Source: Candidatus Saccharimonadota bacterium (GTDB lineage Archaea > Micrarchaeota > Micrarchaeia > Micrarchaeales > Micrarchaeaceae). Taken from it: a DNA stretch of 32,000 nucleotides. A model generated the notes under the pieces. It saw only the letters and a list, made by a program, of their open reading frames with translations, was not told where the DNA came from and made no database searches. The stretch covers positions 450,001-482,000 of the forward strand of contig AP024486.1 of NCBI GenBank assembly GCA_021654395.1. The letters are read 5' to 3'. Below are positions 2,659-32,000 of the stretch, in pieces. The first letter of the stretch is position 1, and the number at the start of each line of letters is the position of its first letter. A program made the position numbers and the translations under genes.

Positions 2659-3999
2659 ATGAGATATATAGCTATTGGATTTACAATACTAGCCTTACTT
2701 AGAGTAGCCTTCTCTAGCACTGAGGTGCTTGGAGCGAGCGCATCAGTATACTGCCCATTTAATGCAACTCTATTAAATAGCTATATATTAGAAGTCAGTA
2801 AAGATCAGATTGTGATTCAGCTCAATTCTAGTAATAGATGTCCGATAGGCCCATTTAATTATACATCCTACTTATATAAGAATGGATCTATAATCTATAG
2901 CAGATATGGTAAGGCTTTAGCTAATAGCTCTATATATAATATATCATTAAATCTTCCTGTTAAACTAGAACAAGGTAGATATAAGATATATAGTAAGATT
3001 AATGCAATAAACTTCTCAAACTATATAAACACAAGCCTATATGTAATTGAGCCGCCTAATATAAGCATATCTGTTAGCTATCTTAAAGATATATATCAGT
3101 ACTCTAATGATTATATATATCTAAATCTAACGAATAATGGTGGCTTAGCTGCTAGAGGCATAGTTGCAAATATAAGCATATCTGGACCAGCATCTATAAG
3201 TCTATCAAAGAGTATAGCTGCAATAGATCCCAAATCTAGCTACTCTTTAGTATATGCAACTCAGCCTTTAAGTGTAGATGGAAGATATAATATTAGAGTA
3301 AATGTAAGCTATATCTATACATTTAATAATATAAGCTATAGCTCTAATCTTAGCATAAGTAATCTGAGTATATATGTACTCTCTAGGCCATCGGTATCTA
3401 GAAGCTCTATAAGTAGCTATACAATACTACCAGAGGTAAAGAGGAATATAAGCACAAATGTATTTGCTATAGAGCTTCCTTTCTACTTTAGTGGCTACTC
3501 ATCAGGCTATATCTCTGCACCATTAGCCATAAGAAACTCTGGAAACTCAACGATATATGCTAGAATAATTACAAACGCCTCATTTAATAGATCTATAATA
3601 CCAGATGCTTATTCTATATATATACCAGAGCATCAAAGCATAGATGATATACTAAATATAAACTATTCAGCTATAGAGAGTGGCTTAAGCATAATACCCA
3701 TTTATATAAATATAAGTTCATTAAATGGCAGTAATAGTAGGCTATTTAAGTATAATATACTAGTTCAGAAGAATAAGCCGTATGGTTATATAAGCAGCTA
3801 TCAGTACACACTGCTTTATAACAACATGAGCTCCGCATACTCGCTTATTGCAATAAGATCTAACGCTAATAAGGTAATAAGGGATGCAGTTATAGAGCTT
3901 AGACTTCCAATCTCAGTAACAGATAGCTCTAGTAATATATATGCATATGGTCTTCCAAGCAATATATCTGAAAGCAATGGATCATTCATCATAAGATGA
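2659..3999 (+). CDS. Secreted, heavily sequon-rich surface (S-layer-like) glycoprotein, N-terminal 446 codons up to an in-frame TGA.
   Basis: Sec-type signal peptide MRYIAIGFTILALLRVAFSSTEVLGASA. My manual count gives about 25 N-X-S/T sequons. Composition is rich in S, N, Y and I. See the 4000-4602 continuation. Confidence 0.8.
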   Translation: MRYIAIGFTILALLRVAFSSTEVLGASASVYCPFNATLLNSYILEVSKDQIVIQLNSSNRCPIGPFNYTSYLYKNGSIIYSRYGKALANSSIYNISLNLPVKLEQGRYKIYSKINAINFSNYINTSLYVIEPPNISISVSYLKDIYQYSNDYIYLNLTNNGGLAARGIVANISISGPASISLSKSIAAIDPKSSYSLVYATQPLSVDGRYNIRVNVSYIYTFNNISYSSNLSISNLSIYVLSRPSVSRSSISSYTILPEVKRNISTNVFAIELPFYFSGYSSGYISAPLAIRNSGNSTIYARIITNASFNRSIIPDAYSIYIPEHQSIDDILNINYSAIESGLSIIPIYINISSLNGSNSRLFKYNILVQKNKPYGYISSYQYTLLYNNMSSAYSLIAIRSNANKVIRDAVIELRLPISVTDSSSNIYAYGLPSNISESNGSFIIR

Positions 4000-4653: not shown

Positions 4654-5358
4654 ATGAGGATCTTAAGAGTAAGCTCAAATAAAGGGGGCGTTGGAAAGAG
4701 TGTAATAGCAATTAATATTGCAATAGATTTAGAGAATAAAGGCTTTAATGTATTGCTAATAGATGCAGATATAACTAACTCTAGTATAGCTACATATCTA
4801 GGCTTAGCTAATGTAAAGCATACTTTTCTAGATATACTTAAAGGAAAGAGGAGTATAGATGAGTGTATAATGATACACGATACCGGATTAAGATATGTTG
4901 TATCATCAAACAAGATAAGTCAGTATACAACTATAGTAAATGGGAAGCAGATGCATAGATTAAAAAGAGAGCTACTGAAGCTGAAGTACGATTATGTAAT
5001 CTTTGATACTGCTCCAGGTTATATATTAGAAGATATAGCAAGCTTATACAACATGGCTTTTATAGTAACAGAGCCTTATACAGGATCTTATATAAGCGCT
5101 CTGAGGCTTGCTAAGTTTTACGATAAGAATAATATAGAGCATATGCTTATAGTAAACAAGATACAGAATAGAAGCTATGAGCTGAATATAAAAGAGATAG
5201 AGGAGTCTTATAACAGCTATATACATAAGATACCTTATGATGATAATGTAAATAGGTCAATTCAGCTTCAGAGGCCTATTATTATAGATAAACCTAACTC
5301 TAAGTTTAGTAGATCTATAAGCAGACTTTCAGAGAGAGTCATAAAGATGAGTGATTGA
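4654..5358 (+). CDS. MinD/ParA-family P-loop ATPase.
   Basis: Deviant Walker A SSNKGGVGKSVIAINIA, followed by VLLIDADI and a Walker B-like YVIFDTAPG. Its TGA stop directly abuts the GTG start of nfo (TGAGTG). Confidence 0.8.
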   Translation: MRILRVSSNKGGVGKSVIAINIAIDLENKGFNVLLIDADITNSSIATYLGLANVKHTFLDILKGKRSIDECIMIHDTGLRYVVSSNKISQYTTIVNGKQMHRLKRELLKLKYDYVIFDTAPGYILEDIASLYNMAFIVTEPYTGSYISALRLAKFYDKNNIEHMLIVNKIQNRSYELNIKEIEESYNSYIHKIPYDDNVNRSIQLQRPIIIDKPNSKFSRSISRLSERVIKMSD

Positions 5359-7567: not shown

Positions 7568-10500
7568 TCACATAAATGCGGTAAGGTTAGTAGCTCCGCT
7601 ATAGCTACTACCAAATACTTCTTTTATCTCATATCTTATTAATCTTATTCTTTGCTTTATATAGTTATCTAAATTATACCTTTCTGCAAGCTTTTCAGCA
7701 GAGTCTAAGTACTTCTCTATGCTACCCCTTGAGATCGTGAGAGTTAGCTTTCCACCACATCTTTCACATACTCCTTTTATAGGAACTCTTCTGTACTTTG
7801 CATTGCATGTTGTGCATCTAAATCCTTGCTTAAAGTATGAATGAAGATTTCCTATAAGATCTGGTAAGAAGTGGCTTAATATAAGCTTTCTAGCTGCATC
7901 AGACTTATTAACACACTCTAGCTTATCTATTAAGCTGAACTCTGCCTCTATCTTCTCTTGCATACTCTTTAGTATAGTATACCTAGATCTCTTAGGGCTA
8001 CTGCTTATAACATTTATGCTTGATAGATGTGTAAAGTTTAGATTGTCATATACTGTCTCTTTACCTAATCTACTTCCAACCGTATCAAGCTGTAGATCTC
8101 CAGGCATCTTTCCTTCAAGAGTCGCTCTATAGAAATTTAGATCATAACATGATTGTACCTCCATCTCATGAACCTCGTCATCAACCTCCTCTGGATGTAC
8201 ATTAACAGTTAGTACTATAGGGGCATCCATAGTACCTCCTATAGTTGATGGAAGATAGTTTCTAGAGAAGTTTATAAGCGCATCTAGTAGAAGCATCATT
8301 GTATCCTCATCTCCATCGCAGTTTCTTCTTCTTGCTGATATAGTGTATGGGTGAGCAAGTATGGCATTAACATCCATATAGCCAACTATTCTATTCAGAA
8401 CTCCTGCAGATGTATGCGGAGATAATGTAATAACATACTGTCCAATAATATCCTCGCTGCTCTTTAGATTATAGAATCTCTCAAGGCCATAGTACTTCTC
8501 TAAGAGCTCATCTATATAGTTTGCTACATTATATAGAAATTCTAATGCTTTCTTAGGTATTATTATATCCTGATGCCTTAACTCTATAAGCTGATCATCT
8601 CTTTCTAATGGAGCTCCTTTATAGTCTGTAGTATATCCAAGCTGCCTCGCCTTCTCAACTGTTATCCCAACCTCTCTTGGATAGAAGTGAGTTATAGGTA
8701 CATCTGTTCCATCAAATCTAGCAGTTCCGTCCTTAAAGATATGTACATTATGCTTAGCTCTTAATATTCCTTTCTCTAATGGCTCTGGTATCTTATCAGC
8801 ATTAGTAAGCCCCTTAATTCCCTTTATAACTTCGATATTTGAGTGCTCATTTAGTCTATCTAAGGCTCTCTTATAGAGCTCTACTATATCAATCTCTCTC
8901 TTAGAATAAGCAACTGTCTCTGAGCCGCATCTAGGACAGATCTTGTCAACTGTCTTAATGCCGCACTTATTGCAAGATCTTTGAAGTACAGCTCTTACCT
9001 TATGCTTATCACAGTAAGGAGTAACTATAAGCTCTTTATCTATAGGGCATTCGTAGTTAGCTATTGTGAGCTCGATTCCTCTATTATCGAATCTCTTCTT
9101 TGCATTATTATAAGCCTTAACTACATTTCTCTCACTACCTCCATACAGCTCTAAAGGGAATAGAACGTGCGGAGGTGGCTTCATTAGCCTCTCTCTTGCC
9201 TTTTCTGGTCTTCCAATTCTAGCTCCTATTCTGCTAGATCTCTTCATGACCTTAAAAGGAGCGATCTTGTTTATAAGCTCAAGAGAGCTTTTTGCATCTA
9301 TACTTCTATAGCCATCAATCTTCTTAGGATCAACTACTATCTGCTCATTCTCTGAGAAGCCCAATGTAGCTAATAGGGCTTGGGCATCGTCATTCTCTAT
9401 AATAATATGGCTTATAAAGTCTCTATGCGGTATACAAAGCCTCTCTAGTATATGCCTTATCAGATCTACATTCTCTTTTATCTTTATAGACTCTACAGAG
9501 AATAAGCTACCATTATGCTTTATATCTGATCTGTATAGCGAATCGATAACTGCAATAAGATCGCTTACGCTTACATCTTGATACTCGTATATATACCTAG
9601 GATGCATTGGGATACCGTAGCTCTTTGAGATCTCATAAGCATCCTTAAATCTGTTCACTGATGGTATCTGATCTACACCCTTTGCTCTTAGCTCTGCCTC
9701 CCAGAACTCTTCAACGTAGCTGCTTTCTATAAGCTGCGTATTGGTTTTCTTAAAGTCTCCATAAGTTACTAGTATATCTCCTACAGATATTATCTTTTGA
9801 ACCATACTCTTATACTTGCGTGCCTCATCAGCAGTGTTAATCCTAAATGCTCTCCCATCAGTAAGCTTTACAAAAGGCCCCTCTATAGTATCTACAGGTA
9901 CTGCAACGCAGCCCTTTCCTGGTGTCTCTATCTTAAGCTGAGTTCCTACTGCTATAAAATCATCAAGCAGAATCATAGTAGCTGGATTAAAGCCTTTAGC
10001 TGCTATTCCTGTGAATCTTGATCTGCCATATCTCAATCTAAACGATCCACTCATCTTAGGATATGCTAAGACAGGTCTTCCAGCTACAAGCTCTGATAAG
10101 AATGTTGCTTCATTGCTCTCTCCTTCTTGCTTTGCCTTATCTACCTTTATAACCTTCTCTAACCAGCCCCAGTTTAGATTGAATGTATTAGCATACTTTA
10201 ATACGCTCTTTGCCTTCTGAGCGATTCCTTCGCATATAACTAATCCTATTCCGCTTCTTACCTTATTTGTTACTGTCTCCTCTGTATTGTCAAGCCTTAT
10301 CCTTTTAATATCTCTATGAACTCCAACCTCTATATCGTGAGATGCTATACTATCAACGCATACAGGACAGTTCTGTACTATTATTCTTATATGATCCTCT
10401 GGCGGCTTATACTGAAGTCTTGCAATTCTCTGATCATATAGCTCTATCTCCTCAATATACCTTTCAACCTCATTAGATGATGGCTTATATTCTCCAATAT

Positions 10501-10990
10501 TAAATACTCTTCTTAGATAATCTACCAAAACTACAGATAACGCAGCAGCAGTTCCACCAGCGCTTCTTATTGGACCAGCATATATTATAGAGGCATATGT
10601 TGTGTTATCTGGATTCTTATATATCTTTATTCCCTGCATACCTTCTGTAGGCGCTACTAGTACTCCATCTGTAAGTATAGCTAATCCTACCCTTACAGCT
10701 AATGTTAATGTTGCCTCTATACTATCTTGTTTAAATCTTTCATCTGTGCAGATGGCTTTAGCTACATCAAATGCTAATACTCTTGTAGGCTGTCCATGAG
10801 ATAGACTTCTTATAAGCTCTGCTACTCCTTTATAGCCAACTATTCCTTCTACTCTTGATGCTAGATCTGGTGCTTTAGAGATCTCAACATAAGGCTCTGG
10901 ATCATATCCTTTCTCTCTAGCTGCGCTAGCAACCTTATAAGCCTTATCAAACTCTTTATTCATTAGCTCTTCATACTCTTTAATATTCAT
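7568..10990 (-). CDS. polC: DNA polymerase II (PolD) large catalytic subunit DP2.
   Basis: The 1140-aa length is typical of an intein-free DP2. It has the N-terminal MN..EYE...EFDKAY..A...R.KGYDPE opening, several Zn-finger Cys clusters (CPVCV; CNKCG...CPRCG; CTTCN...CERCG) and the conserved SAGGTAAALSV and RRRNCDGDED segments. It overlaps the DP1 stop by 4 nt (ATGA). Confidence 0.95.
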   Translation of the reverse strand: MNIKEYEELMNKEFDKAYKVASAAREKGYDPEPYVEISKAPDLASRVEGIVGYKGVAELIRSLSHGQPTRVLAFDVAKAICTDERFKQDSIEATLTLAVRVGLAILTDGVLVAPTEGMQGIKIYKNPDNTTYASIIYAGPIRSAGGTAAALSVVLVDYLRRVFNIGEYKPSSNEVERYIEEIELYDQRIARLQYKPPEDHIRIIVQNCPVCVDSIASHDIEVGVHRDIKRIRLDNTEETVTNKVRSGIGLVICEGIAQKAKSVLKYANTFNLNWGWLEKVIKVDKAKQEGESNEATFLSELVAGRPVLAYPKMSGSFRLRYGRSRFTGIAAKGFNPATMILLDDFIAVGTQLKIETPGKGCVAVPVDTIEGPFVKLTDGRAFRINTADEARKYKSMVQKIISVGDILVTYGDFKKTNTQLIESSYVEEFWEAELRAKGVDQIPSVNRFKDAYEISKSYGIPMHPRYIYEYQDVSVSDLIAVIDSLYRSDIKHNGSLFSVESIKIKENVDLIRHILERLCIPHRDFISHIIIENDDAQALLATLGFSENEQIVVDPKKIDGYRSIDAKSSLELINKIAPFKVMKRSSRIGARIGRPEKARERLMKPPPHVLFPLELYGGSERNVVKAYNNAKKRFDNRGIELTIANYECPIDKELIVTPYCDKHKVRAVLQRSCNKCGIKTVDKICPRCGSETVAYSKREIDIVELYKRALDRLNEHSNIEVIKGIKGLTNADKIPEPLEKGILRAKHNVHIFKDGTARFDGTDVPITHFYPREVGITVEKARQLGYTTDYKGAPLERDDQLIELRHQDIIIPKKALEFLYNVANYIDELLEKYYGLERFYNLKSSEDIIGQYVITLSPHTSAGVLNRIVGYMDVNAILAHPYTISARRRNCDGDEDTMMLLLDALINFSRNYLPSTIGGTMDAPIVLTVNVHPEEVDDEVHEMEVQSCYDLNFYRATLEGKMPGDLQLDTVGSRLGKETVYDNLNFTHLSSINVISSSPKRSRYTILKSMQEKIEAEFSLIDKLECVNKSDAARKLILSHFLPDLIGNLHSYFKQGFRCTTCNAKYRRVPIKGVCERCGGKLTLTISRGSIEKYLDSAEKLAERYNLDNYIKQRIRLIRYEIKEVFGSSYSGATNLTAFM

Positions 10991-12486
10991 CTATACTCAC
11001 CACTAAAGTCCATAGATACGAGATTATTATTCTTTAATCCGTAGGCATAAAAGTTGCAAGGAGTTGGATTATGTCCTAGCTTTATCTGGTATATTGTCTT
11101 AGCCTGCCAAGTACCGCTATTTATAAGTATGCTTCCTTTATGCGTTGCAAAGTCATTCTTATGTATATGTCCTGTATGAAATATATCTGGATCTATCTCC
11201 ATTACTAGATTATCCTCAGCAGATGGTATAACAGGATTCATTCCATATACTGGAGATAGATGCCTCTTTCTTAATAGCTGCAGCATTACCTCTGCTGGCT
11301 TATCATAGCTAAGCCCTGGTATAGACTTAATCATGGAGTCTATAGATGCGCCATGGTATCCAACAAGATTAAACTTATGTACGCTTATATACATAGGATT
11401 TGGTAGTATAGATATATTATCTGCAGCATTCTTAAACTCTCTTATTATGTCTTCTGGTAATGGTGGCTGCGGCTCAGCTAAAGCTACAGCATCATGATTT
11501 CCAGGTGCTAGGAATATATGTATGTAATCCGGTACATCTGAAAGCAGATCAAACAGATATCTATACTGAAGATATATATCTGCTATACTAAGCTCTCTTT
11601 CTTGCTCAGGGTATACCCCTATTCCATCTACTAGATCTCCTGAGATTACGAGATACTTTATCTTGCCGCTTATGCTATTTTCGTCCTTGCTATTCAACCA
11701 ACTCAAGAATGCTCTAAAGTTCTTCTCTAAGAATAGCTTGCTACCTACATGTATATCTGATAAAAATCCTATATAGATATCATCTTCTGATCTCTTATTC
11801 TTAACTGATGTATCTGGGAAGTATATATTACTGACTAAGAGCAGATCCTTCGAGATGAGCTTTCCCTTAACAGCTATTACCTCATCATTTACAAGATATC
11901 TCGCATCCTTCTCTAGCTCAGTATTCCCTCTATTCATCGGTATAATAGCATTTATAGAGCCAGTTTCATCCTCAATAGTTATTGTTATATTGCCGTTCTT
12001 TGTATCTCTCTTATCTCTTATTATGCCAGCAGTTACAAATGTTCTTCCAGATGCGTAGTTATCTATGCTATTTATATTTACTAGCTCATTTCTTATCTCT
12101 AAGTTATTTCTAAGGATCTTATCTCTAATCTTAAATAGTCTGCTTCTAAAGTAGCTTACAAAGTCATTTGCTGTTGCATTACAGTAGCTATCCTTTGTAT
12201 TGTAGATCTTATACTCTGCCTCTATCTCGCTTGCCTCTGCTCTATAGCTCTTATTTAAGACCTCTACTCTCTCTGGCTTTGAGCTCTTTATAGATTCTAT
12301 TATGCTTGATAGCTTATTCTTATCTAGTACTACTAAGCCTTTCTCATCCTTATACTGCTTTACTATATAAGCGGTAAGAAGCTCAATATCTACATCGCTG
12401 ATTAGCTCTGTAGCATCCTTCTTTATAATTATATTCGGTGCGATATCTCTTAATCTGTTAAGTAGCTCTGTAGCTGCCTCGTTCAT
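10987..12486 (-). CDS. polB: DNA polymerase II (PolD) small exonuclease subunit DP1.
   Basis: 499 aa. An OB-fold-like middle region is followed by calcineurin-type phosphoesterase motifs: FLSDIHVGS, ISGDLVDGIGVYP, APGNHD and FHTGHIH. Confidence 0.93.
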   Translation of the reverse strand: MNEAATELLNRLRDIAPNIIIKKDATELISDVDIELLTAYIVKQYKDEKGLVVLDKNKLSSIIESIKSSKPERVEVLNKSYRAEASEIEAEYKIYNTKDSYCNATANDFVSYFRSRLFKIRDKILRNNLEIRNELVNINSIDNYASGRTFVTAGIIRDKRDTKNGNITITIEDETGSINAIIPMNRGNTELEKDARYLVNDEVIAVKGKLISKDLLLVSNIYFPDTSVKNKRSEDDIYIGFLSDIHVGSKLFLEKNFRAFLSWLNSKDENSISGKIKYLVISGDLVDGIGVYPEQERELSIADIYLQYRYLFDLLSDVPDYIHIFLAPGNHDAVALAEPQPPLPEDIIREFKNAADNISILPNPMYISVHKFNLVGYHGASIDSMIKSIPGLSYDKPAEVMLQLLRKRHLSPVYGMNPVIPSAEDNLVMEIDPDIFHTGHIHKNDFATHKGSILINSGTWQAKTIYQIKLGHNPTPCNFYAYGLKNNNLVSMDFSGEYR

Positions 12487-12488
12487 TC

Positions 12489-12776
12489 TTACTTAACTTT
12501 TATTGATTCTAATATAGACAGTATATTCCATATTAGAGTTCTCTCTTGCTGCGGTATATTTATATCATTGCTTACAGAGTCTAGATCATATATTACTGAA
12601 GATATCTTTATATCTAAAGAGTCTTTGCTATTAAGAAGTCTATCCTTTGCGTTAGATATAGTTGCCCTTATGCTTCTAGGCACTTTCATATCATTTATAA
12701 GAAAGTCCATCTGCTTAACAGCCTGCTCTATAAGACTATTAATCTCACTGCTTGATCTTCTAGGCATTCTAATCAC
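12489..12776 (-). CDS. UPF0147-family small helical protein.
   Basis: 95 aa with the motif order MKVPRSIRATISNAKDRL ... DLDSVSNDINIPQQERTLIWNILSILE. This resembles the VPRNIRR ... DPN.P...RT.IW signature as I remember it. The gene sits 2 nt upstream of DP1. Confidence 0.55.
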   Translation of the reverse strand: MIRMPRRSSSEINSLIEQAVKQMDFLINDMKVPRSIRATISNAKDRLLNSKDSLDIKISSVIYDLDSVSNDINIPQQERTLIWNILSILESIKVK

Positions 12777-12789
12777 CCAATAAGTAGCT

Positions 12790-12813
12790 AATTAAGTAAC
12801 TAATTACTTAATT
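12790..12813. promoter_or_regulatory. 10-bp perfect inverted repeat (aattaagtaa ctaa ttacttaatt) within a pair of TAAGTA(G/A)CTAAT direct repeats.
   Basis: It lies between the stop of the VIT1-like gene (12865) and the start of the UPF0147/PolD operon (12776). It could be a terminator hairpin or an operator. Confidence 0.3.
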
Positions 12814-12864
12814 AAATCATTAAATATAAATAAATCTTATTAACTATAATTTAAAAGGGCTTCG

Positions 12865-13770
12865 TTAATACAGATTGACTCCTAAGGCTATCCTTACTAT
12901 ATATCCTAATAGAGATGTTACTAAAGCTGCAGATAGTGAGAATATTAGAGTCTTTGCTATATATCTATCAATGCTATTATTGCTCATAACTGCTATTATA
13001 AATGATGATATATACAAAGCCATGCCTGTAAATAGGAATGCTAATATTATGCCCTCAAGATGCTTAAATCCTATAATAAATGGTATTATCGGAATTACTG
13101 CTCCAGTTATATAAGATAAGCCAACGTACTTTGCAGATCTCTTTGCATCCTCTCTGCTGCTCTCTGCTCCGGTTGATAGATAAGCTCCAACTGTCATAGA
13201 TAAGGTACCAGATAGCGCTACTATAAGGCCGCTTATTATTACAAGTAATGGATTCTCTATAGCAGTAGCTATACCCGAGACAGAGGCTAAGACCTCAACA
13301 AGCCCATCATTTATTCCAAAGACTATATCTCTAATGTTGCTTGCCTCTCTCTCATACCTAAGTATCCTCTTCTTTATCTCCTTCTCTATTATAGCTCTAT
13401 ATCTCTCTATACTTCTTATCTCAGATAGCTCTTTATCTGATAGCTTTAGGCTGCTCTTATGCTTATTAAGCTCTTTCTCTGTGTCTATCTCTTCTCTTTC
13501 GATAAGCTTCATAGTAAATGCTATTCCAAATAATCTCCTTAGAAGATCTATTAGATAAGCATGTATCCTCAATAGAATATCTATGGATGGCTTAATATCT
13601 GCTAATCTCGCCCATCTTATAGAATCATTATACTCTATCTTATATAGCCTCTTTGCTAGCTCTCTTACCTCCTCTGGCAGCCTTGCATCTTTTGATAGTC
13701 TCTTGTAGAATAGATAGTGCAAGCTTTCAATCTTGTATAGCCTCTTATAGAAAGAATACTTATCATGCAT
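12865..13770 (-). CDS. VIT1/CCC1-family iron/manganese transporter with an N-terminal helical (ferritin-like?) extension.
   Basis: The C-terminal half has DIVFGINDGLVEVLASVSGIA plus further TM helices, typical of VIT1. I place the start at the ATG at 13770 (MHDKYSF...) rather than the track start at 13860, because the first 30 codons run into the AT-rich divergent promoter and its palindrome. Confidence 0.7.
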   Translation of the reverse strand: MHDKYSFYKRLYKIESLHYLFYKRLSKDARLPEEVRELAKRLYKIEYNDSIRWARLADIKPSIDILLRIHAYLIDLLRRLFGIAFTMKLIEREEIDTEKELNKHKSSLKLSDKELSEIRSIERYRAIIEKEIKKRILRYEREASNIRDIVFGINDGLVEVLASVSGIATAIENPLLVIISGLIVALSGTLSMTVGAYLSTGAESSREDAKRSAKYVGLSYITGAVIPIIPFIIGFKHLEGIILAFLFTGMALYISSFIIAVMSNNSIDRYIAKTLIFSLSAALVTSLLGYIVRIALGVNLY

Positions 13771-17372: not shown

Positions 17373-17470
17373 TCGTCTTCACCTAAATAATTATTTAATA
17401 GATAGATAATTTAATAAAAGTGTATATCAATCTTTATTATAAAGTCTTTAGTATATATAAAGTAGTTTAT

Positions 17471-18289
17471 ATGAAAGATAATAATAGAAAGAGTCAGATA
17501 CTTATTAGATATGTAGTATCAATAGTATTCATAGCAGCTATCTATATTATAGCATATATATACTTATCTAGCAAGCCTAAATACAACAGTAGCTTATATA
17601 CAACAGTATACACAACATATACAACTATACCGAATAGCTCAAGCAGTCAAGACAATAGCACTATTGTTATAACAGTAAACAGCTTAAATATATCTCGTTA
17701 TAACTTTAGCTTTAATATATCAAGATACGAAGAAGATAAGAAAGCGTTATTGAATGTCTCCGTATACAATAGATTTAATCAGTCTATAGGAGTAGATGCA
17801 TATCTATATAATCCATCGAACACTACAGTAATATTATATAGAAATATGAGCATAATAACAGATATAGTCAGTAATACAAGCTTTATAAATAATGAGTATC
17901 CATGTAGCTACAATAGCTTTATTATAGCTATAGCACTCTATAAAGGGATATATAACGTAACGCAGCTTTACAATAAAAGTCCCTTACTATTATATAAGCC
18001 ATTTATCGTTACCTGCCCTCTAATAACAGGTAATGCCTCGCCTGTCTATCTATTTAGTAGATCAAGTAATATATCTATATACTATAGCTCAGCGCAGAGC
18101 ACAGATCATGTCTATAATACAACGTCTAAGACCTCTTATATTATAAGTAGCTACTGGATATATGCAAATAATACATATAAACAAGAGCCGCTTAATGGAA
18201 GTTATACTCTGCTTATAGTTTCACCGTATACAAGCAGCTATGATATTATACATATCCATGCGAAAAGGCAGATGCTAAGCTATAATTAA
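17471..18289 (+). CDS. N-terminally anchored, sequon-rich surface protein (paralog 1).
   Basis: I prefer the ATG at 17471 (MKDNNRKSQ...) over the track GTG at 17420. It has one N-terminal TM helix, many N-X-S/T sites, and a shared C-terminal LNGSYTLLIVSPY motif with the next gene. Confidence 0.75.
   Translation: MKDNNRKSQILIRYVVSIVFIAAIYIIAYIYLSSKPKYNSSLYTTVYTTYTTIPNSSSSQDNSTIVITVNSLNISRYNFSFNISRYEEDKKALLNVSVYNRFNQSIGVDAYLYNPSNTTVILYRNMSIITDIVSNTSFINNEYPCSYNSFIIAIALYKGIYNVTQLYNKSPLLLYKPFIVTCPLITGNASPVYLFSRSSNISIYYSSAQSTDHVYNTTSKTSYIISSYWIYANNTYKQEPLNGSYTLLIVSPYTSSYDIIHIHAKRQMLSYN
17798..17905 (+). repeat. 108-nt near-identical patch shared with 18640-18747 (copy 1).
   Basis: The patch gcatatctatataatccatcGaacactacag...aatgagtatccatgt differs from copy 2 at a single synonymous position, 17818 G versus 18660 A. 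Confidence 0.9.
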
Positions 18290-18372: not shown

Positions 18373-19140
18373 ATGGTATCTGATAAGCAGAGTAGGCATT
18401 ATATGCCTTTATATCTAATATTGGTATTGGCTTTAATAGTACTGATACTATACTATATAGAATCTAGTCCTAATGTTAAGTATTCAAATAGTGGCGGATT
18501 ATACTCAAATAACCAAAGCCTAAATAATAGCGTTAACTCAAGCTACAATAACAAGACAGAGCTAATAAATGAATCTAAGCGCTCAGTCATTTTATATGCG
18601 AACATTACAGAGCTAAAGAATAATACATTTAAGCTCACTGCATATCTATATAATCCATCAAACACTACAGTAATATTATATAGAAATATGAGCATAATAA
18701 CAGATATAGTCAGTAATACAAGCTTTATAAATAATGAGTATCCATGTGATTTAAATCTATTTCCTATAGTAGTAGCGCTATTTAAAGGCAACTATAGCAT
18801 ATCTCAGCTATATAATAAAACACCATTGCTTATAGAGCCACCCCCACCACCTTATCTACTCTGCCCTGTATCAATACTATCTAGAGTAAGCTATGTAAGT
18901 ATGCCGGCTAGATCAACAGATATAGAAGTAAATACAACTCTTACACCAACCTCGCAAAGACTAAACTATAGCGAGAATACTAAGACAACCTTTTACATAT
19001 CTGAATACTTTTCACCGCAATCTACAAGTAATTTAACCAGCTCACAGTACTATCGCGCATATAAGCTTAATGGAAGCTATACCATACTTGTTGCCTCTCC
19101 TTATGTAAAAGATTATAGAGTATTCCATATTAAGGCATAG
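18373..19140 (+). CDS. N-terminally anchored, sequon-rich surface protein (paralog 2).
   Basis: 255 aa with the TM helix MPLYLILVLALIVLILYYI. It shares the identical 36-aa block AYLYNPSNTTVILYRNMSIITDIVSNTSFINNEYPC and the C-terminal LNGSYTILVASPY with paralog 1. Confidence 0.8.
   Translation: MVSDKQSRHYMPLYLILVLALIVLILYYIESSPNVKYSNSGGLYSNNQSLNNSVNSSYNNKTELINESKRSVILYANITELKNNTFKLTAYLYNPSNTTVILYRNMSIITDIVSNTSFINNEYPCDLNLFPIVVALFKGNYSISQLYNKTPLLIEPPPPPYLLCPVSILSRVSYVSMPARSTDIEVNTTLTPTSQRLNYSENTKTTFYISEYFSPQSTSNLTSSQYYRAYKLNGSYTILVASPYVKDYRVFHIKA
18640..18747 (+). repeat. 108-nt near-identical patch shared with 17798-17905 (copy 2).
   Basis: See copy 1. The flanking sequence of the two genes is much more diverged. 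Confidence 0.9.
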
Positions 19141-25947: not shown

Positions 25948-26343
25948 ATGATAAGTATATTTAGCTTATTAGAGATACTCACAGCTGCATTTTTAGCAGC
26001 AACAGCACAGATATTTATTAAACACTTTATAGACTCTGCAAAGCATACTATTAAAAAGATGCTAAATATGTTAAAAGAGCTTAGAGTTGGCATAATCTTA
26101 AAGGATATACTGTCACTTATAAACATAAACTCTGTTACTGCAGCTTTGCTATATATAATAGCTCTTCTTATATATCTTCATGCCTTGAAAGAGCTTCCAT
26201 TATTTTATGTCTATTCAATATTCGGTAGTGTATTTGTCTTTGTATATATATTTTCAGTTACAATACTAAGAGAGAGGTCAAATATAGTTAACTTTGTTGG
26301 AGTACTGCTCATATTTATCGGAGTTTCTTTACTAGCGATATAA
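25948..26343 (+). CDS. Small 4-TM EamA/SMR-like half-transporter (ArnE/ArnF-like), subunit A.
   Basis: 131 aa. TM1 carries the A.AQ...K motif (LAATAQIFIKH), and the C-terminal VGVLLIFIGVSLLA is typical of EamA repeats. Confidence 0.6.
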   Translation: MISIFSLLEILTAAFLAATAQIFIKHFIDSAKHTIKKMLNMLKELRVGIILKDILSLININSVTAALLYIIALLIYLHALKELPLFYVYSIFGSVFVFVYIFSVTILRERSNIVNFVGVLLIFIGVSLLAI

Positions 26344-26351
26344 GTGATTAG

Positions 26352-26681
26352 ATGAGAAGAGCCTTACTTATAATACTTATACTTATCATAAATCTACTTG
26401 GGGCCTTTGGGCAGATCTCGCTAAAGATATACGCCGATTACAATAAGCTTTTAGTATTTCTAATACTGGGTTTATTACTATATATATCATCTACCTTCTT
26501 ATACCTATATCTTTTAACATTCAACGATCTATCATGGAGCTATAGCATAATAAGCCTAAGCTATCTATTTACAGATATTCTTTCTGTTATTATATTTAAG
26601 AGTAGTATACCATTAGATGCATGGATCGGCGCATTGTTAATAGTTATAGGAATAGTACTGATAAGTTATAAAAAGGTTTAA
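26352..26681 (+). CDS. Small 4-TM EamA/SMR-like half-transporter (ArnE/ArnF-like), subunit B.
   Basis: 109 aa. LLGAFGQISLKIYA resembles the ArnE segment SVAGQLCQKQA as I remember it. The C-terminal segment is WIGALLIVIGIVLISY. The gene starts 8 nt after subunit A. Confidence 0.6.
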   Translation: MRRALLIILILIINLLGAFGQISLKIYADYNKLLVFLILGLLLYISSTFLYLYLLTFNDLSWSYSIISLSYLFTDILSVIIFKSSIPLDAWIGALLIVIGIVLISYKKV

Positions 26682-26709: not shown

Positions 26710-28062
26710 ATGGACAACCAAGATAAGAGTAGCTTAGACTCTTCAGAAGTAAAGACTCAGATAGATGCGTTATATCAGCTAATAAAAGATAGAGGAAAGA
26801 TAGATAATCTAACTGCAGCAGCAATACTTAAAGCAAGCCCAGATATAGTTGATAAGTGGGCCGAGGTGCTGTATAACAACAAGCTAATAAGGATTACCTA
26901 TGAGATGGGCAAGACTCTATATCAAACAGTAGAAGCTGACAAGAAAGAAGATAAGGCAGAGATATCTACAAAGATAGATACTCTATCTAATCAGATAAAT
27001 GCAGCATTAGTACAGATAGATGCTTATATAAAGGACTTATCTAAGCTTGAGACAAATACTGCAGAGCTTAACAAGAAGTATAAGTCATCTCTACCAACAT
27101 TCTACAAGGAGCTCAGCGGTATAAATAGAATCTATATGAAGATAACATCCTACTCTAAGAAGATAGAACAGTATGAGAGCAGGATAGAGAAGCTTATAGA
27201 AGATGTAGAGAAGAGAAAGAACCAGTTAAGCGATTCATTATTTAAGCTTTCATCAATAGATATGACATCAAAGATAGCAGATGCAGACTCTAGAATAGAT
27301 AAGATAAGGGCAGAGCTGGAAGAGCTAGATAAGGAGTACGCGAATCTGCTAGTAGAGAAGAGAAATTCATTAAAGAGCATAAAAGAAGAGCTAGAGAAAG
27401 ATATAAAGAGTATATATAAAGATCTAGATAAGAGGTCAGTAGACATAGAGACAAAGGTAAAGGATTCAAAGAAGGATCTTGATAAGCTTTTACTAGATTT
27501 TAAATCTACAGTAGAGTATATAAAGAATAGTAAGAGAGAGCTTAATAAAGATTCTAAAGAGGTGGACAAGCTTATAAAAGATGTTACAGACTCATTTAGT
27601 AAGTTTGAGGGATTATACAAAGATGCATTAAATAATATAAACAAGGAGATAGAGGACTTTAATCAATCCTTTAATAAGCTTGTAGAGAATATTAGATCTG
27701 TAAAGTCAGAGTTTGGCAGAATAGGAGATATCGATACAAAGCTTAATGAGACTATAATGCAAGTAAATGATATAAAATCAGATTTAGATACATTAAAGAA
27801 CGATATACAAAAGTCAAGTAGAGATCTAAGAAAGATAAAGCTTACCATAGAGTCTCTAGATTCAAAGTCTAAGAAAGATAAGAAGCAGAACATAGATCTT
27901 AATGATATTAAAGATAAGATAGATAGAATAAGCGAAGGCGTAGATAAGGATCTAGAAGAGCTTAATAATGTGTATATGAGAATAGGTAAGATATCTCAAG
28001 CAATAGGAGATATAATACAGGAGATAAAAGAGGGCAATAAAAATAAATCTAACAAGTCTTAG
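26710..28062 (+). CDS. Putative N-terminal winged-helix-like domain plus a ~370-aa coiled-coil protein. First gene of the type IV filament operon; function unknown.
   Basis: 450 aa. The N-terminus IDALYQLIKDRGKIDNLTAAAILKASPDIVDKWAEVLYNNKLIRITY looks wHTH-like. The rest is K/D/E/I/L/S-rich with heptad-like periodicity. No TM segment. Confidence 0.75.
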   Translation: MDNQDKSSLDSSEVKTQIDALYQLIKDRGKIDNLTAAAILKASPDIVDKWAEVLYNNKLIRITYEMGKTLYQTVEADKKEDKAEISTKIDTLSNQINAALVQIDAYIKDLSKLETNTAELNKKYKSSLPTFYKELSGINRIYMKITSYSKKIEQYESRIEKLIEDVEKRKNQLSDSLFKLSSIDMTSKIADADSRIDKIRAELEELDKEYANLLVEKRNSLKSIKEELEKDIKSIYKDLDKRSVDIETKVKDSKKDLDKLLLDFKSTVEYIKNSKRELNKDSKEVDKLIKDVTDSFSKFEGLYKDALNNINKEIEDFNQSFNKLVENIRSVKSEFGRIGDIDTKLNETIMQVNDIKSDLDTLKNDIQKSSRDLRKIKLTIESLDSKSKKDKKQNIDLNDIKDKIDRISEGVDKDLEELNNVYMRIGKISQAIGDIIQEIKEGNKNKSNKS

Positions 28063-28075
28063 CTAGATAAAGCTG

Positions 28076-29572
28076 ATGCTCATGGCTGAGAAGATATTAG
28101 AGGAGTATAATCTAGATGTAAATGCACTTGCTGTAAATATAAAGATAGTGGATAGAGATGAGTTTGTACCATCATACATAGCAACTACTGTAGGAATAAG
28201 CGATATAACAAAGCTTTTAATAAATTCATGGAGGAATGAGCTAGTAGAGCTTGTTCCAATAGATATAATGCGCCTTCAGGATAAAGAGTATATAAAAGAG
28301 CTAAATAACAGATACGAGCAGGAGACAAATCTGCTTATAGATAAGTATCTACCACACACAGATGATAAAACAAGATCACTAATAGTTGCATATGTAAGAA
28401 ATATGATGGTTGGCCTTGGAGAGCTAGAGATCGTTCTTGCGGATGAGAACCTAGAAGAGGTAACAGTAAATGGACCAAAGAAGCCAGTATGGGTATTTCA
28501 TAAGAGATATGGTTGGTGCAAGACAAATATAATAATGGAGTCTGATGAGCAGATATATGAGTACTCGGAGAAGATAGGAAGAAATGTTGGAAGAGAGATA
28601 AATAATCTGCAGCCTTTAATGGATGCAGAGCTATTAGATGGTTCTAGAGTTAATGCTACTCTATTTCCCGTATCACAAAGTGGTAATACAATAACAATAA
28701 GAAAGTTCTCTAAGAATCCTTGGACTATGCCTGCTTTAATAAAGGCCAAGTCATTAACTCCAGAGCTAGCAGGTCTTATATGGCTATGTATACAGAATGA
28801 GATAAGCCTTATAATAGCTGGAGGTACAGCGTCAGGAAAGACAAGCTTCTTAAATGCGATGAGTATATTCTTTCCTCCAAATAGAAGAATAATATCTGCT
28901 GAAGAGACAAGAGAGCTAGAGCTACCAAACTTCTTCCAATGGGTAGCTATGCTTACTAGGCAGCCGAATCCAGAGGGTAAGGGAGAGATAAAGCTTTATG
29001 ATCTATTGATAAACTCATTAAGACAGAGACCAGATATAATACTAGTAGGAGAGGTTAGAACAAAGAGCGATGCAGAGGTAATGTTTGAGGCTATACACAC
29101 AGGCCATTCAGTATATGGAACAGTTCACGCAGATAATGCACAAGACTTTATAATAAGAATGACAAATCCTCCTATAGATATATCAAAGGTTACATTAAAT
29201 GCTCTAGGGGGAGTTATAGTAAACTTTAGGCATAGATCAAAAGGAATAAGAAGGGTATTAGAGTTTGCAGAGGTTACACAGAGCGGAGATGCAAGCGTAT
29301 TATATAGATGGGATGTTAACTTAGATACACAGATAAAGATCTCTGAGATGTCTAGGCTTAACGATACACTAAAGCTTTATAGCGGAATGAGCGATAAAGA
29401 GATAGTAGATGATGTGCAAGAGAAGGCTAAAGTGCTGCAATGGATGGTTAAGAATAATGTTGTAGATGTAGATAGCAGCGGATTAGTTATAGCAAACTAC
29501 TATAAGAATAAAGATAAGGTTATGCAGATAGTTAATGATGATGTTAAGTATACACCAGATCTATTTAAGTGA
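28076..29572 (+). CDS. Type IV filament assembly ATPase (FlaI/PilB/TadA, GspE superfamily).
   Basis: Motifs seen: GLGELEIVLADENLEEVTVNG, LLDGSRVNA, Walker A AGGTASGKTS, ETRELELP, Walker B PDIILVGEVR and His box TGHSVYGTVHA. Confidence 0.92.
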   Translation: MLMAEKILEEYNLDVNALAVNIKIVDRDEFVPSYIATTVGISDITKLLINSWRNELVELVPIDIMRLQDKEYIKELNNRYEQETNLLIDKYLPHTDDKTRSLIVAYVRNMMVGLGELEIVLADENLEEVTVNGPKKPVWVFHKRYGWCKTNIIMESDEQIYEYSEKIGRNVGREINNLQPLMDAELLDGSRVNATLFPVSQSGNTITIRKFSKNPWTMPALIKAKSLTPELAGLIWLCIQNEISLIIAGGTASGKTSFLNAMSIFFPPNRRIISAEETRELELPNFFQWVAMLTRQPNPEGKGEIKLYDLLINSLRQRPDIILVGEVRTKSDAEVMFEAIHTGHSVYGTVHADNAQDFIIRMTNPPIDISKVTLNALGGVIVNFRHRSKGIRRVLEFAEVTQSGDASVLYRWDVNLDTQIKISEMSRLNDTLKLYSGMSDKEIVDDVQEKAKVLQWMVKNNVVDVDSSGLVIANYYKNKDKVMQIVNDDVKYTPDLFK

Positions 29573-30558
29573 TTATATTGAATGAAGATATAATAGAGAT
29601 CCTGAAGGAGCTAGATAAGGAGAGAGCTCAGAAGCAGGTTAATGATTATCTAGATCTATCAACAAGCTCTATAGAGAGCAAAAGTGAGCAAGATTTTAAT
29701 AAGCTTCAGGATCTTGTATTAGCTATAGTTCAAAAGACAGATACAAGAAAGAAGATAGAGCAGTCTCAGAAGCAGAAGACTAATATCAAAGAGCAATCAG
29801 AGGAGCAGCAGAAGCAGCAGATAGAGGTAAAGCAACAGCAGATACCAGAAGCAAGTAGAAGCAGCGAGGAGATTAAACAGAAAGAAGAAGCTAATAAAGA
29901 GGTTATAACTAGCTCTAAGCAAGAGGAAGTTAATAAAGAAGCTCAAAGCATTACTAAGCAAGAAGAGGTCAAGAAAGAGCAAAAGAAGATAAGTATATTC
30001 GGCATTAAAAAGAAGGAGAAGCAGAAGATTGAGCAACCGCAAGAGAGTAAGCAGATTGAAGAACAGAAGCATCTAGAAGAGCAGAAGGTAAAAGCAGCTG
30101 CAGCTACTCAGCAAGCCGCTCATTTAAATCTTGAATCGCCTGTTGAGGTAATAGATAAGCAGATAGCAGAGTCTAAAGAGATCAGTAATGAGAGCATTGA
30201 AAAAGAAGAGGAGAAGATTAATACTACACAGACAGCGAAGCAGATAAAGATAAATATTAATCAGGATCTCTATCTACCAAAGATGAGCCTAGCAGATATG
30301 CTAACAGAGCTAGAGAATATAGAGTACCTCTTAAATCATAATGTATTAGATAAAAGCACTTTAAGTATAATAGTAATAGAGGTATACGGGCTATCATTTG
30401 CAATTAGTAGATGTGGCTCTATAAAGATCGATCAGGATAACTTAGCTGAAAGAATATTATATAATAAGCTAACTACTAAGCTGAGTGATATTATAAATCT
30501 ATTAAGCAGTATGGGATACTCTCCTAATGTAGAGCTTAGTGTGGTATATACATGCTAA
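29569..30558 (+). CDS. E/K/Q-rich, apparently disordered protein with a small C-terminal globular domain. Function unknown; embedded between the ATPase and the platform genes.
   Basis: 329 aa. It has a GTG start overlapping the ATPase stop (GTGA), and its stop overlaps the next gene's start (ATGCTAA). Residues ~60-200 are low complexity (KQEEVNKEA / KQEEVKKEQ-type imperfect repeats). The C-terminal ~100 aa are of ordinary composition. Confidence 0.7.
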   Translation: MIILNEDIIEILKELDKERAQKQVNDYLDLSTSSIESKSEQDFNKLQDLVLAIVQKTDTRKKIEQSQKQKTNIKEQSEEQQKQQIEVKQQQIPEASRSSEEIKQKEEANKEVITSSKQEEVNKEAQSITKQEEVKKEQKKISIFGIKKKEKQKIEQPQESKQIEEQKHLEEQKVKAAAATQQAAHLNLESPVEVIDKQIAESKEISNESIEKEEEKINTTQTAKQIKININQDLYLPKMSLADMLTELENIEYLLNHNVLDKSTLSIIVIEVYGLSFAISRCGSIKIDQDNLAERILYNKLTTKLSDIINLLSSMGYSPNVELSVVYTC

Positions 30559-31427
30559 CAGATAAGGCAGCTCAAGGTCAAGCTAAGAGCCAGAGTAAGT
30601 TCCAGCAGAGATTAGCGAGAATGGCTCGTAAGAAGCATATAGACGAAAATGTACTTAGAAAGCATAGGATTAACTCCACACCAGAGCAGTTCATATTCAA
30701 GGTCTTAATGCTCTCTATAATATTAGCTATAGCTATAGCAGTATTCATGTTTATACTATTTTATATAAGAGGATTTGCTTTACCGATATCTGCTCTAGTC
30801 TCTTTAGTTATAGGGTTTGTTGTACAGACAATCTTCTATAATATGATGACTAACTTCCCAGCAACGAAAGGCAAAAAATCAGCTAGAAATGCAGAGAGAG
30901 ATATGATCTTCGCAGCTAGAGACATAATAATATCTCTGCGTTCAGGCTCTCCTCTATTTAATGCTATAGTATATGTAAGCAACGGCTATGGCGATGCGAG
31001 CGAGGAGTTTAGAAGGATAGTTGAGAAGGTTCAAGTTGGAGTACCATTAGTAGATGCTATAGATAGAACTATTGAGGAGAGTAAGGTACCATCATTTAAG
31101 AAGATCATGCTTCAGGCGGCAGTTGCAATAAAGAGTGGATCAGAGGTAACTACAGCATTATCTTCGATAATACAGCAGATAGAGGAAGAGAGATATATAC
31201 AGCTTAAGGCTTACGCGCAGAAGCTGAATGTTCTATCTATGTTCTATATGCTATTCGGTGTTATATTTCCATCTATGGGTCTTGCCTTAGCGATAATATT
31301 AACAACATTTATATCTATTATAACAATAAATGCTACAATATTAGAGGTTGTTATAGTATTTGTTATTGCTGTGCAGGTTGTATTCCTACAGATGTTAAGA
31401 ACATCAAGACCTGCATTTACAACGTGA
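30552..31427 (+). CDS. Type IV filament platform protein with a single T2SSF domain (TadB/TadC- or EpdJ/K-like), copy 1.
   Basis: 291 aa. The cytoplasmic helical domain AERDMIFAARDIIISLRSGSPLFNAIVYV...EEFRRIVEKVQVGVPLVDAI is flanked by TM helices. Confidence 0.85.
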   Translation: MLTDKAAQGQAKSQSKFQQRLARMARKKHIDENVLRKHRINSTPEQFIFKVLMLSIILAIAIAVFMFILFYIRGFALPISALVSLVIGFVVQTIFYNMMTNFPATKGKKSARNAERDMIFAARDIIISLRSGSPLFNAIVYVSNGYGDASEEFRRIVEKVQVGVPLVDAIDRTIEESKVPSFKKIMLQAAVAIKSGSEVTTALSSIIQQIEEERYIQLKAYAQKLNVLSMFYMLFGVIFPSMGLALAIILTTFISIITINATILEVVIVFVIAVQVVFLQMLRTSRPAFTT

Positions 31428-31431
31428 TCTT

Positions 31432-32000
31432 ATGGTTAAATGGGAGGCTCTAGTATCAAGAAATGTTTATGATTATATAGATAGGGAGGCAACATTAGCA
31501 GGTCTAAAGAGGAATGCTGCAGATAGGTTAATATCAATAATGGTTATATCTTATGTTATAATATTCGTAGCTGTTATCTTATTGATGCATTATCTGCTTA
31601 AGCTTAATATATTAATATCTGCATTGGTTGCTGTTATAGCGCCATTTGCCGTTCCTGTAGCTATAATACTTATATTAGAGTATAAGATAGATCAGAGGAA
31701 GAATAAGTTAGAGGTTTGGCTTCCAGACTTCTTTAGTCTAACTGCAGCGAATCTTAAGAGTGGGATGTCATTTGATAAGGCTTTAGTCTCATCTGCTAGG
31801 CCAGAGTTCTCTTTCTTCTCAGATGATGTAAAAGAGATGATAAAGCTTGTTGTCAGTGGAGAGACTATGGAGAATGGTCTTAAGTACCTTGCCAGTAAGT
31901 ACAGATCTTATCATCTCCAACATTCAGTGAGAATGATAATTCAGTCTATTAGATATGGTGGATCTGTATCAGATCTATTGAGGAGTATAGCCGAGGATAT
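31432..32000 (+). CDS. Type IV filament platform protein with a single T2SSF domain, copy 2 (partial; runs off the window end).
   Basis: This ORF is not on the track. I translated it by hand from the ATG at 31432: MVKWEALVSRNVYDYIDREATLAGLKRNAADRLISIMVISYVIIFVAV...EVWLPDFFSLTAANLKSGMSFDKALVSSARPEF...VVSGETMENGLKYLASKY... The LPDF...L.AANL.SG.S...AL motif is typical of T2SSF domains. Confidence 0.8.
   Translation, partial: MVKWEALVSRNVYDYIDREATLAGLKRNAADRLISIMVISYVIIFVAVILLMHYLLKLNILISALVAVIAPFAVPVAIILILEYKIDQRKNKLEVWLPDFFSLTAANLKSGMSFDKALVSSARPEFSFFSDDVKEMIKLVVSGETMENGLKYLASKYRSYHLQHSVRMIIQSIRYGGSVSDLLRSIAED

Follow-up and report, generated by a model that had tools for sequence, protein, structure and literature searches.

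A probable split-platform type IV pilus motor operon in Micrarchaeota with two conserved, unnamed cytoplasmic proteins

Introduction

Micrarchaeota are tiny symbiotic archaea of the DPANN group and, like the rest of its cultivated members, live attached to a host cell. Here we describe five genes at the end of a 32,000-nucleotide stretch of micrarchaeal DNA (contig AP024486.1 of assembly GCA_021654395.1, positions 450,001 to 482,000, forward strand; hereafter the window, in whose own numbering positions are given) that appear to encode the motor of a type IV pilus. For the way in which DPANN symbionts attach and exchange material, pili together with LamG adhesins are the standing hypothesis (PMC5498576). 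Among archaeal pili, a platform split over two genes is the hallmark of clade 1, or 'system 1' (Epd), and is reported also for subsystem 4B and, within some DPANN archaea, for subsystem 4A loci; this state of platform fission has been proposed for both Epd-like and Tad systems (Denise et al., PMC6668835). FleN/MinD ATPases, which are TadZ-like, are recurrent partners of clade 1 and clade 2 archaeal pili.

A locus of this type has been described in the phylum. In Candidatus Mancarchaeum acidiphilum Mia14, Golyshina et al. (PMC5498576) listed an ATPase (MIA14_0170), two TadC proteins (0172 and 0173) and a secreted component (0176). The 2017 study assigned the Mia14 locus to the Methanococci/Thermococci group, linked LamG proteins to pilus loci and found key pilus components to be common to many Micrarchaea. 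The genes MIA14_0170-0177 lead, as in the window, from an ATPase through an unlisted gene (0171) to two consecutive platform (TadC) genes; in Mia14 a secreted component then follows. The genes 0169 and 0171, which stand where the window has its two accessory genes, are absent from the list of pilus components in that study; the orthology of the two loci is taken from gene order alone. The locus type is already known and the two accessory proteins are not, and the main added value of the present analysis lies in these two newly delineated, conserved and unnamed cytoplasmic components.

Results

A five-gene operon at the end of the window

We read the five genes as the motor operon of a Micrarchaeota-wide, split-platform (Epd-like, 'system 1') archaeal type IV pilus in which both accessory proteins are cytoplasmic motor parts, and give this reading a probability of roughly 0.7. 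The pilus is probably used for host attachment. All five genes lie on the plus strand between positions 26710 and 32000. An earlier note, made from the letters of the DNA, had described them as co-oriented and tightly packed with two overlapping junctions, and the listing of open reading frames (ORFs) confirms this layout:

26710..28062, plus strand: accessory gene 1 (winged helix and coiled coil), 450 aa, cytoplasmic, from the ORF listing
26740..26928, plus strand: predicted winged helix-turn-helix (HTH) domain of accessory gene 1, residues 11-73, acidic, from profile, AlphaFold2 (AF2) and Foldseek
28076..29572, plus strand: secretion-superfamily hexameric ATPase of the FlaI/archaeal GspE/CpaF kind, 498 aa, PF00437
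29569..30558, plus strand: accessory gene 2 (bipartite, cytoplasmic), 329 aa, start codon GTG at 29569 or TTG at 29578
30289..30510, plus strand: predicted C-terminal three-helix bundle of accessory gene 2, residues 241-314, from AF2
30552..31427, plus strand: platform A, the N half of the platform (TadC/FlaJ-N-like), 291 aa, one T2SSF domain, multi-pass
31432..32000, cut by the window end, plus strand: platform B, the C half of the platform (FlaJ-C-like), PF00482; full copy of 333 aa at 10881-11882 of contig L001

The four junctions measure 13, -4, -7 and 4 nt. Accessory gene 1 is separated from the ATPase gene by 13 nt and platform A from platform B by 4 nt, while the ATPase gene overlaps accessory gene 2 in the tetranucleotide GTGA at 29569-29572 and accessory gene 2 overlaps platform A in ATGCTAA at 30552-30558. 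The full copy of platform B was taken from the Logan contig DRR248898_1089 (L001; 13.7 kb), which is identical to the window across their overlap and ends 38 nt past this gene. Of the features that mark the type IV filament superfamily, the locus has a secretion ATPase with four motifs and an adjacent polytopic T2SSF platform.

Conservation of the cassette in relatives

A scan with the ATPase over one genome per prokaryotic species gave 72 loci, mostly in metagenome-assembled genomes of Candidatus Micrarchaeota or Micrarchaeia. The ATPase orthologues from Micrarchaeota are 59-68% identical, and more distant ones occur in Woesearchaeota and Bathyarchaeota. Synteny was counted over the 54 loci in which the ATPase has an identity of 59% or more, using our own ORF calls compared with the window proteins. 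This survey of neighbourhoods, which the earlier note had suggested, found the arrangement to be strongly conserved. A homologue of accessory gene 1 stands directly upstream of the ATPase in 46 of the 49 loci with enough flank, and the middle gene (accessory gene 2), platform A and platform B follow the ATPase in this order in 34 of 46 loci. Another 4 loci probably have the order too; in these an antisense ORF was picked across the low-complexity middle gene. Median intergenic distances across relatives are 2, 4, -2 and 4 nt. The genes around the cassette differ between genomes, and the cassette is therefore a conserved unit. Identity of the accessory proteins to those of the window is low, 17-30% among the relatives.

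The public gene calls at one related locus (L079) run from an M50 peptidase over a coiled-coil protein, a T2SSE protein, a 236-aa protein and two T2SSF proteins to convergent Laminin_G_3 and PQQ genes. Given positional orthologues in dozens of Micrarchaeota genomes and independent public gene calls that match the order, the five ORFs are real genes and not chance ORFs.

Two groups of loci depart from the full cassette. Seven loci (L012, L013, L014, L016, L017, L022 and L067; at about 8700-13700) pair only accessory gene 1 with the ATPase and continue into unrelated genes; here the platform genes must lie elsewhere or have been lost. Because the pair persists where platform genes are not adjacent, accessory gene 1 and the ATPase form the tightest association in the cassette. 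In this subgroup the ATPase is slightly longer (520-524 aa) and is followed by an unrelated gene for a membrane protein of 420 aa and by one that is methyltransferase-like. The relatives in Woesearchaeota and Bathyarchaeota, on the other hand, have the ATPase and two platform genes and neither accessory gene, and both accessory genes therefore appear, by this distribution of homologues, to be additions made in Micrarchaeota.

Directly upstream of accessory gene 1, many relatives carry a membrane metalloprotease of about 230-250 aa with the motif HELMHKF (Peptidase_M50, 2e-10; L007 7917-8630, L079 9258-9956 and about 13 further loci). This gene may be a mere matter of synteny or a processing enzyme for the system. 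The upstream gene of about 240 aa in 13 relatives had been considered as a prepilin peptidase or MinD, and was rejected as such on being recognized as the M50 metalloprotease. In the window its position is occupied by two EamA genes.

The ATPase and the split platform

That the operon has a FlaI/TadA-type ATPase and two single-domain T2SSF platform proteins, as the earlier note had it, is borne out by Pfam and by sequence motifs. The ATPase matches PF00437 (T2SSE) at E=5.5e-32 and has all four expected motifs: Walker A (GGTASGKTS), Asp box (EETREL), Walker B (IILVGEVR) and His box (HTGH). Profile matches in the PDB are to the GspE of A. fulgidus (2oap; 1.7e-64, full length), FlaI (1.3e-55) and CpaF (1.4e-45). 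The NCBIfam models for FlaI and for the TadA family score 263 and 174 bits on this protein, under their respective cutoffs of 550 and 373 bits.

Each platform gene encodes a polytopic (multi-pass) protein with one T2SSF domain (PF00482; E=3.4e-16 for platform A and 4.6e-09 for platform B). Platform A, with hydrophobic blocks at residues 43-99 and 227-283, aligns to positions 9-248 of 555 in the ArlJ profile, and the full 333-aa platform B to positions 189-464 of 465. The two are also distant paralogues, with 31% identity over 75 aa (E=0.006). Since they align to the N and C portions of ArlJ and are distantly paralogous, the two genes are, as judged from these alignments, collinear N and C halves of a two-domain FlaJ-type platform.

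Orthologues of platform A in relatives are mostly 340-470 aa long (for example L021 12192-13460, L010 3614-4798 and L048 14865-16274, minus strand). Their extra length is a low-complexity, K/Q/P/A-rich N-terminal extension, often starting with a conserved motif resembling KxIELQPKPKKGxGSLFS, and the 291-aa window protein is without it. A fused accessory-gene-2 domain was sought in the long platform genes (394-469 aa) of the relatives and none was found, the extensions being unrelated low-complexity sequence.

Accessory gene 1 encodes a winged helix followed by a long coiled coil

In the product of accessory gene 1, residues 11-73 form a winged helix and the next 370 or so consist of long helices; there is no transmembrane or hydrophobic segment. 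The four long helices modelled by AF2 span residues 76-181, 185-278, 283-389 and 397-449, with a predicted local distance difference test (pLDDT) score of 50-68. The same architecture had been read from the letters before, and a PDB profile, Pfam on orthologues, AF2 and Foldseek now agree on it. Searched in Pfam and NCBIfam, the protein gives coiled-coil noise only, and the window protein itself has no HTH match in Pfam. A profile of 25 orthologues matches HTH chains of the MarR/Lrp/MntR type in the PDB (best E=0.0022), and Pfam on these 25 orthologues gives MarR in 12 and HTH_DeoR in 11, all weakly (best 3.8e-05). In the AF2 model the domain has the topology H-b-H-H-b-b at pLDDT 83-91, and Foldseek relates it to ArsR, MarR, TFE-alpha and Sso10a at probability 1.0. 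The AF2 models of both accessory proteins were built on alignments of only 5-8 sequences, because word-indexed homology searches found few relatives, and have a mean pLDDT of 63-64. In such a search the winged-helix profile found 4 fragments only.

Conservation is concentrated in the N-terminal 65 residues or so, whose column identity of about 0.6 compares with 0.25-0.4 for the helical rod. In the trimmed alignment of the winged helix T7, D10, G20 and L45 are invariant and I9, L31, W41, E46 and G58 nearly so. The domain is acidic across the orthologues (mean net charge -1.5, median pI 5.3), and the recognition helix, with a mean net charge of -1.4, has conserved W, L and E. As compared with MarR/ArsR-type transcription factors, the winged HTH fold is present, and a basic recognition helix or wing and a score over the Pfam cutoff were not found. 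The acidic character of the winged helix argues for protein docking rather than DNA reading.

An HMMER scan of 1.84 billion representatives (50% clustering) gave a family of 184 representatives at E<=1e-10, mostly 390-440 aa long, of uniform architecture and aligned from the N-terminus. Names are few among them, either 'hypothetical' or 'SbcCD ATPase subunit'. One long relative (cluster P0091, 724 aa; member P0169) is publicly annotated as 'DNA repair exonuclease SbcCD ATPase subunit', a label that is most likely a misannotation driven by the coiled coil. When the context of four representatives was inspected, three directly preceded a T2SSE gene. A weak relative of 539 aa (P0153; E=5.9e-14, at L075 595-2214) adjoins uvrB with no pilus gene nearby, and may be a paralogue with another role.

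Accessory gene 2 encodes a bipartite protein with a variable linker

The product of accessory gene 2 had previously been described as an E/K/Q-rich, disordered protein. This holds for its middle part: E, K and Q make up 54% of residues 61-230, against 13% of residues 231-329, and disorder is predicted for residues 139-229. It does not hold for the two ends, one with a conserved sequence and the other with a confidently modelled fold. In the AF2 model, based on 8 sequences, helices at residues 6-90 reach a pLDDT of about 70-87, and the C-terminal bundle consists of helices at 241-256, 262-282 and 292-314 with pLDDT 88-95. The C-terminal segment bears the family motif LVLPxLSLxDQIxELExIxEGL, and the columns L239, Q244, E247, I251, E271, L275 and R301 are nearly invariant in 29 orthologues. 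Orthologues of 185-330 aa share the N-terminal 60 residues or so and the C-terminal segment, and the linker between them varies in both length and composition. The protein has no transmembrane or hydrophobic segment.

No Pfam or NCBIfam match was obtained for this protein, and no family recurred in a Pfam scan of its 29 orthologues. The PDB profile search gave poly-Q noise only, and Foldseek nothing below E=2. Searched alone, the 329-aa sequence found only itself, while a profile built from 29 sequences brought in 8 proteins; all its relatives in the databases are hypothetical proteins from Micrarchaeia. By these profile comparisons accessory gene 2 belongs to an unnamed family that matches no pilus or archaellum family in Pfam, NCBIfam or the PDB. 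The earlier note could place neither accessory protein in a known pilus or archaellum family, and the Pfam, NCBIfam, PDB-profile and Foldseek searches leave both outside such families.

Pilins and adhesins in relatives

Among the ORFs of the 32-kb window there is no class III signal peptide, no A24 prepilin peptidase and no KaiC-like protein, as had been remarked before of the part then in view. The relatives add to this a substrate operon: in about 30 of 47 related cassette loci, a convergent operon follows directly after platform B. It encodes a pilin-like protein of about 180 aa (N-terminus MMKAQ/FWSMDMIFAV), a protein of about 740 aa (MKG/FVFTLDALFAL) with a PQQ-type (PQQ_2) beta-propeller and Laminin_G_3, and proteins of about 900 and 500-1100 aa with KGQ/L N-termini (for example KGQ/LMSIALLIF) and one to three Laminin_G_3 domains. 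E-values for Laminin_G_3 in these adhesins were 1.9e-35, 3.9e-13 and 1.5e-48. From their sequence, the N-termini of the convergent-operon proteins are predicted class III signal peptides. LamG-type class III adhesins at the locus were seen in relatives only. Two divergent Micrarchaeota (L051 and L053) instead have a canonical, co-directional pilin, KGQ/AAMEYLMTYGWA, directly after platform B.

The pilin-sized proteins of the relatives are about 180 aa long, and neither a pilin of about 70 aa nor EppA was found, whether in the window or within 10-kb flanks in the relatives. The missing short pilin is not decisive, because clade 1 major pilins are typically stand-alone genes. The A24 peptidase is likewise usually encoded away from the locus, as is MIA14_0570 in Mia14 (PMC5498576).

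The Logan contig that completes platform B breaks off (L001 11883-11920) where relatives carry multi-copy LamG adhesin genes. That LamG repeats downstream caused the break is only a guess.

Genomic setting

Around the operon the window holds archaeal housekeeping genes, identified by Pfam as those for the RFC small subunit, Nre, malic enzyme and XPF/ERCC4. Paired half-size EamA-family membrane proteins of 131 and 109 aa (25948-26343 and 26352-26681, plus strand) are encoded directly upstream of the operon, and such a pair recurs at other positions around the cassette in three relatives (L050, L027 and L033). A ParA/MinD-type P-loop ATPase gene (4654-5358, plus strand; PF10609, 2.1e-19) lies 22 kb upstream of the cassette; it is unlinked to the cassette and has no homologue near it in the relatives.

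Three membrane-anchored or secreted, Asn/Ser-rich proteins with no Pfam match (2659-3999, 17420-18289 and 18373-19140, plus strand) are possible glycoproteins of the cell surface; none of the three showed a class III signal peptide. As possible pilus parts we also considered minus-strand ORFs of 1140, 499 and 211 aa at 6.9-12.5 kb and the membrane or secreted proteins at 0.3-4 kb and 17.4-19.1 kb; all were rejected because they have no class III signal peptide and no homologue near the cassette in relatives.

Discussion

A proposed mechanism

By analogy with type IV filament machines, preproteins with class III signal peptides would be cleaved by a FlaK/PibD-type (A24) peptidase encoded elsewhere. 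The ATPase hexamer, seated on the heterodimeric platform, would then lift them from the membrane into the filament, and the lectin-like adhesins displayed on it would fasten the small symbiont to its host. Both accessory proteins would be cytoplasmic motor parts and not transcription factors, and most likely they form a cytoplasmic scaffold on the motor. For accessory gene 1, the tightest synteny, the acidic and conserved docking domain and the poorly conserved rod point to a scaffold bound to the ATPase: the winged helix would serve as a protein-docking module, and the weakly conserved rod could assemble around the ATPase as an oligomeric scaffold or ring, in a role analogous and not homologous to that of ArlX/ArlCDE or TadZ. 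As the bipartite protein has conserved ends and a freely varying linker, it may act as a flexible tether that holds two partners, most plausibly the ATPase or scaffold and the platform, across variable distances of linker.

In a bolder version, which in our view is doubtful, the two accessory proteins would together build a ring or cage in the cytoplasm, of a kind not described before on a type IV filament motor. It would be an invention of Micrarchaeota and could give the ATPase a property beyond those of a simple Epd-like pilus. If true, extension and retraction might be regulated, the pilus might be positioned where the symbiont touches its host, or it might be coupled to the uptake of host macromolecules, and the locus would be the core of a DPANN host-attachment organelle.

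Several points weigh against the pilus-motor interpretation. LamG adhesins are tied to this operon by extrapolation from its relatives, since the contig of the window genome ends 38 nt after platform B with no pilin, adhesin or peptidase visible. The 'Epd-like' label derives from the split platform and from the published assignment of another genome, not from ATPase phylogeny. The AF2 models of the accessory proteins are of moderate overall quality, and the scaffold and tether roles are drawn only from localisation, synteny and charge. A fusion of the middle protein with a platform protein, which would back a physical link between them, was not found. Finally, the family member adjoining uvrB may mean that the accessory gene 1 family is not exclusive to pilus loci.

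Alternative explanations

Accessory gene 1 could be a DNA-binding regulator of the pilus operon, or a nucleoid-associated protein in the manner of Sso10a or RacA, which would be co-transcribed with the machine and non-structural. Its likeness in fold and profile to MarR, ArsR, Lrp and MntR fits this explanation, as do the combination of winged helix or HTH with a coiled coil in Sso10a and RacA and its place at the head of the operon, where autoregulators are often encoded. However, the domain is acidic, with a net negative recognition helix that has W, L and E where DNA readers usually have R, K, S and T, and a rod of about 370 residues far exceeds a dimerisation helix. The strict adjacency to the ATPase at near-zero spacing in 46 of 49 loci, kept where the platform genes are not adjacent, also fits a regulator poorly, and we regard such a role as unlikely. 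That the two accessory ORFs are fast-evolving, lineage-specific fillers with no role in the machine, kept by their operon position, seems highly improbable. Low identity to the window proteins, large low-complexity or coiled-coil parts and the seven relatives that have accessory gene 1 and the ATPase but no adjacent middle or platform genes are what such fillers might show. Yet conserved modules persist across dozens of genomes while all flanking genes change: the winged helix has four invariant and five nearly invariant columns, the C-terminal bundle has seven nearly invariant positions, and the predicted folds are confident exactly in the conserved parts. The 184 representatives of the accessory gene 1 family, with their uniform architecture, are equally at odds with a filler. 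A phage, plasmid or defence origin was set aside, since all the neighbours are archaeal housekeeping genes (RFC, Nre, malic enzyme and XPF).

The machine as a whole might not build an adhesive pilus. It could be a pseudopilus or a bindosome-like display or secretion device, or a conduit for DNA or other macromolecules between symbiont and host, with the winged helix handling DNA. The class III substrates of relatives are mostly very large LamG and propeller proteins, with one of pilin size, which recalls surface display more than a long fibre of one repeated subunit; the closest solved relative of the ATPase is an archaeal 'GspE'; and DNA exchange through type IV pili has been speculated upon in the Mia14 paper (PMC5498576). 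Clade 1 archaeal pili, however, also bear large LamG-type (DUF2341) class III adhesins and are adhesive, and divergent relatives have a canonical pilin directly after the platform genes. Neither the window nor the conserved cassette holds ComEC, ComEA or FtsK-like components, and the winged helix looks unsuited to DNA binding. Such a device or conduit is, in our estimate, quite unlikely, and a motor operon for an attachment pilus is the interpretation that we prefer.

Significance

As a machine the core is ordinary, and archaeal pilus loci commonly have accessory genes peculiar to one lineage. What is gained is the definition of a compact, Micrarchaeota-wide cassette tied to a convergent adhesin and pilin operon in relatives, to which two conserved cytoplasmic components are added that are unlisted in published surveys and annotation pipelines. 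The accessory proteins are targets for interaction studies and cryo-electron tomography in the few co-cultures of Micrarchaeota that can be grown, and candidates for inclusion in MacSyFinder-type models of archaeal type IV filaments.

Comparison with known systems

The archaellum motor (ArlI/FlaI and ArlJ/FlaJ) has a homologous ATPase and platform. In the window, however, the platform is split, and ArlH, ArlF, ArlG, ArlC-E and archaellin are absent; membership was rejected on the FlaI model scoring under its cutoff and on the lack of ArlH, ArlF/G, ArlC-E and ArlX in the window. ArlX, a cytoplasmic coiled-coil scaffold around the archaellum ATPase (PMC5019145), offers the best functional analogy to accessory gene 1. 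The latter differs from ArlX in having no membrane anchor and no sequence similarity to it in any Pfam or NCBIfam profile search.

The archaeal type IV pili of subclade 4F include a cytoplasmic coiled-coil protein, arCOG07564, a presumed regulator in the view of those who described it. They are a precedent in that a coiled-coil protein inside the cell is there a pilus component particular to one clade. These pili are haloarchaeal or nanoarchaeal and are not described with a split platform, and they are likened to the window by description alone.

The bacterial Tad (Flp) pilus shares with the window a single ATPase, its CpaF being homologous, and a platform made of two half-size proteins, the outcome of fission in a two-domain ancestor. 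The window ATPase is nevertheless closer to archaeal GspE and to FlaI than to CpaF, and TadZ, a secretin and a Flp-type pilin are all absent from the window. The window platform genes run in the order N half, then C half; in the alignment of Denise et al. the N half is matched by TadC and the C half by TadB. Membership in bacterial Tad systems was rejected given the TadA model under its cutoff, the weaker match to CpaF, the lack of TadZ and a secretin, and the archaeal organism.

The Epd pilus of Methanococcus maripaludis, placed in clade 1 by Makarova et al. (2016) and called 'Epd-like' by Denise et al. (2019), has in common with the window one FlaI/TadA-type ATPase and a pair of platform genes that each encode just one T2SSF domain. 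With the related loci in other Micrarchaeota it shares the large class III adhesins of LamG type. Unlike the Epd and other clade 1 loci, the cassette is without EppA, a FleN/MinD or FlaH-like secondary ATPase and a major pilin of about 70 aa. It has in turn two cytoplasmic accessory proteins that are not among the described components of clade 1.

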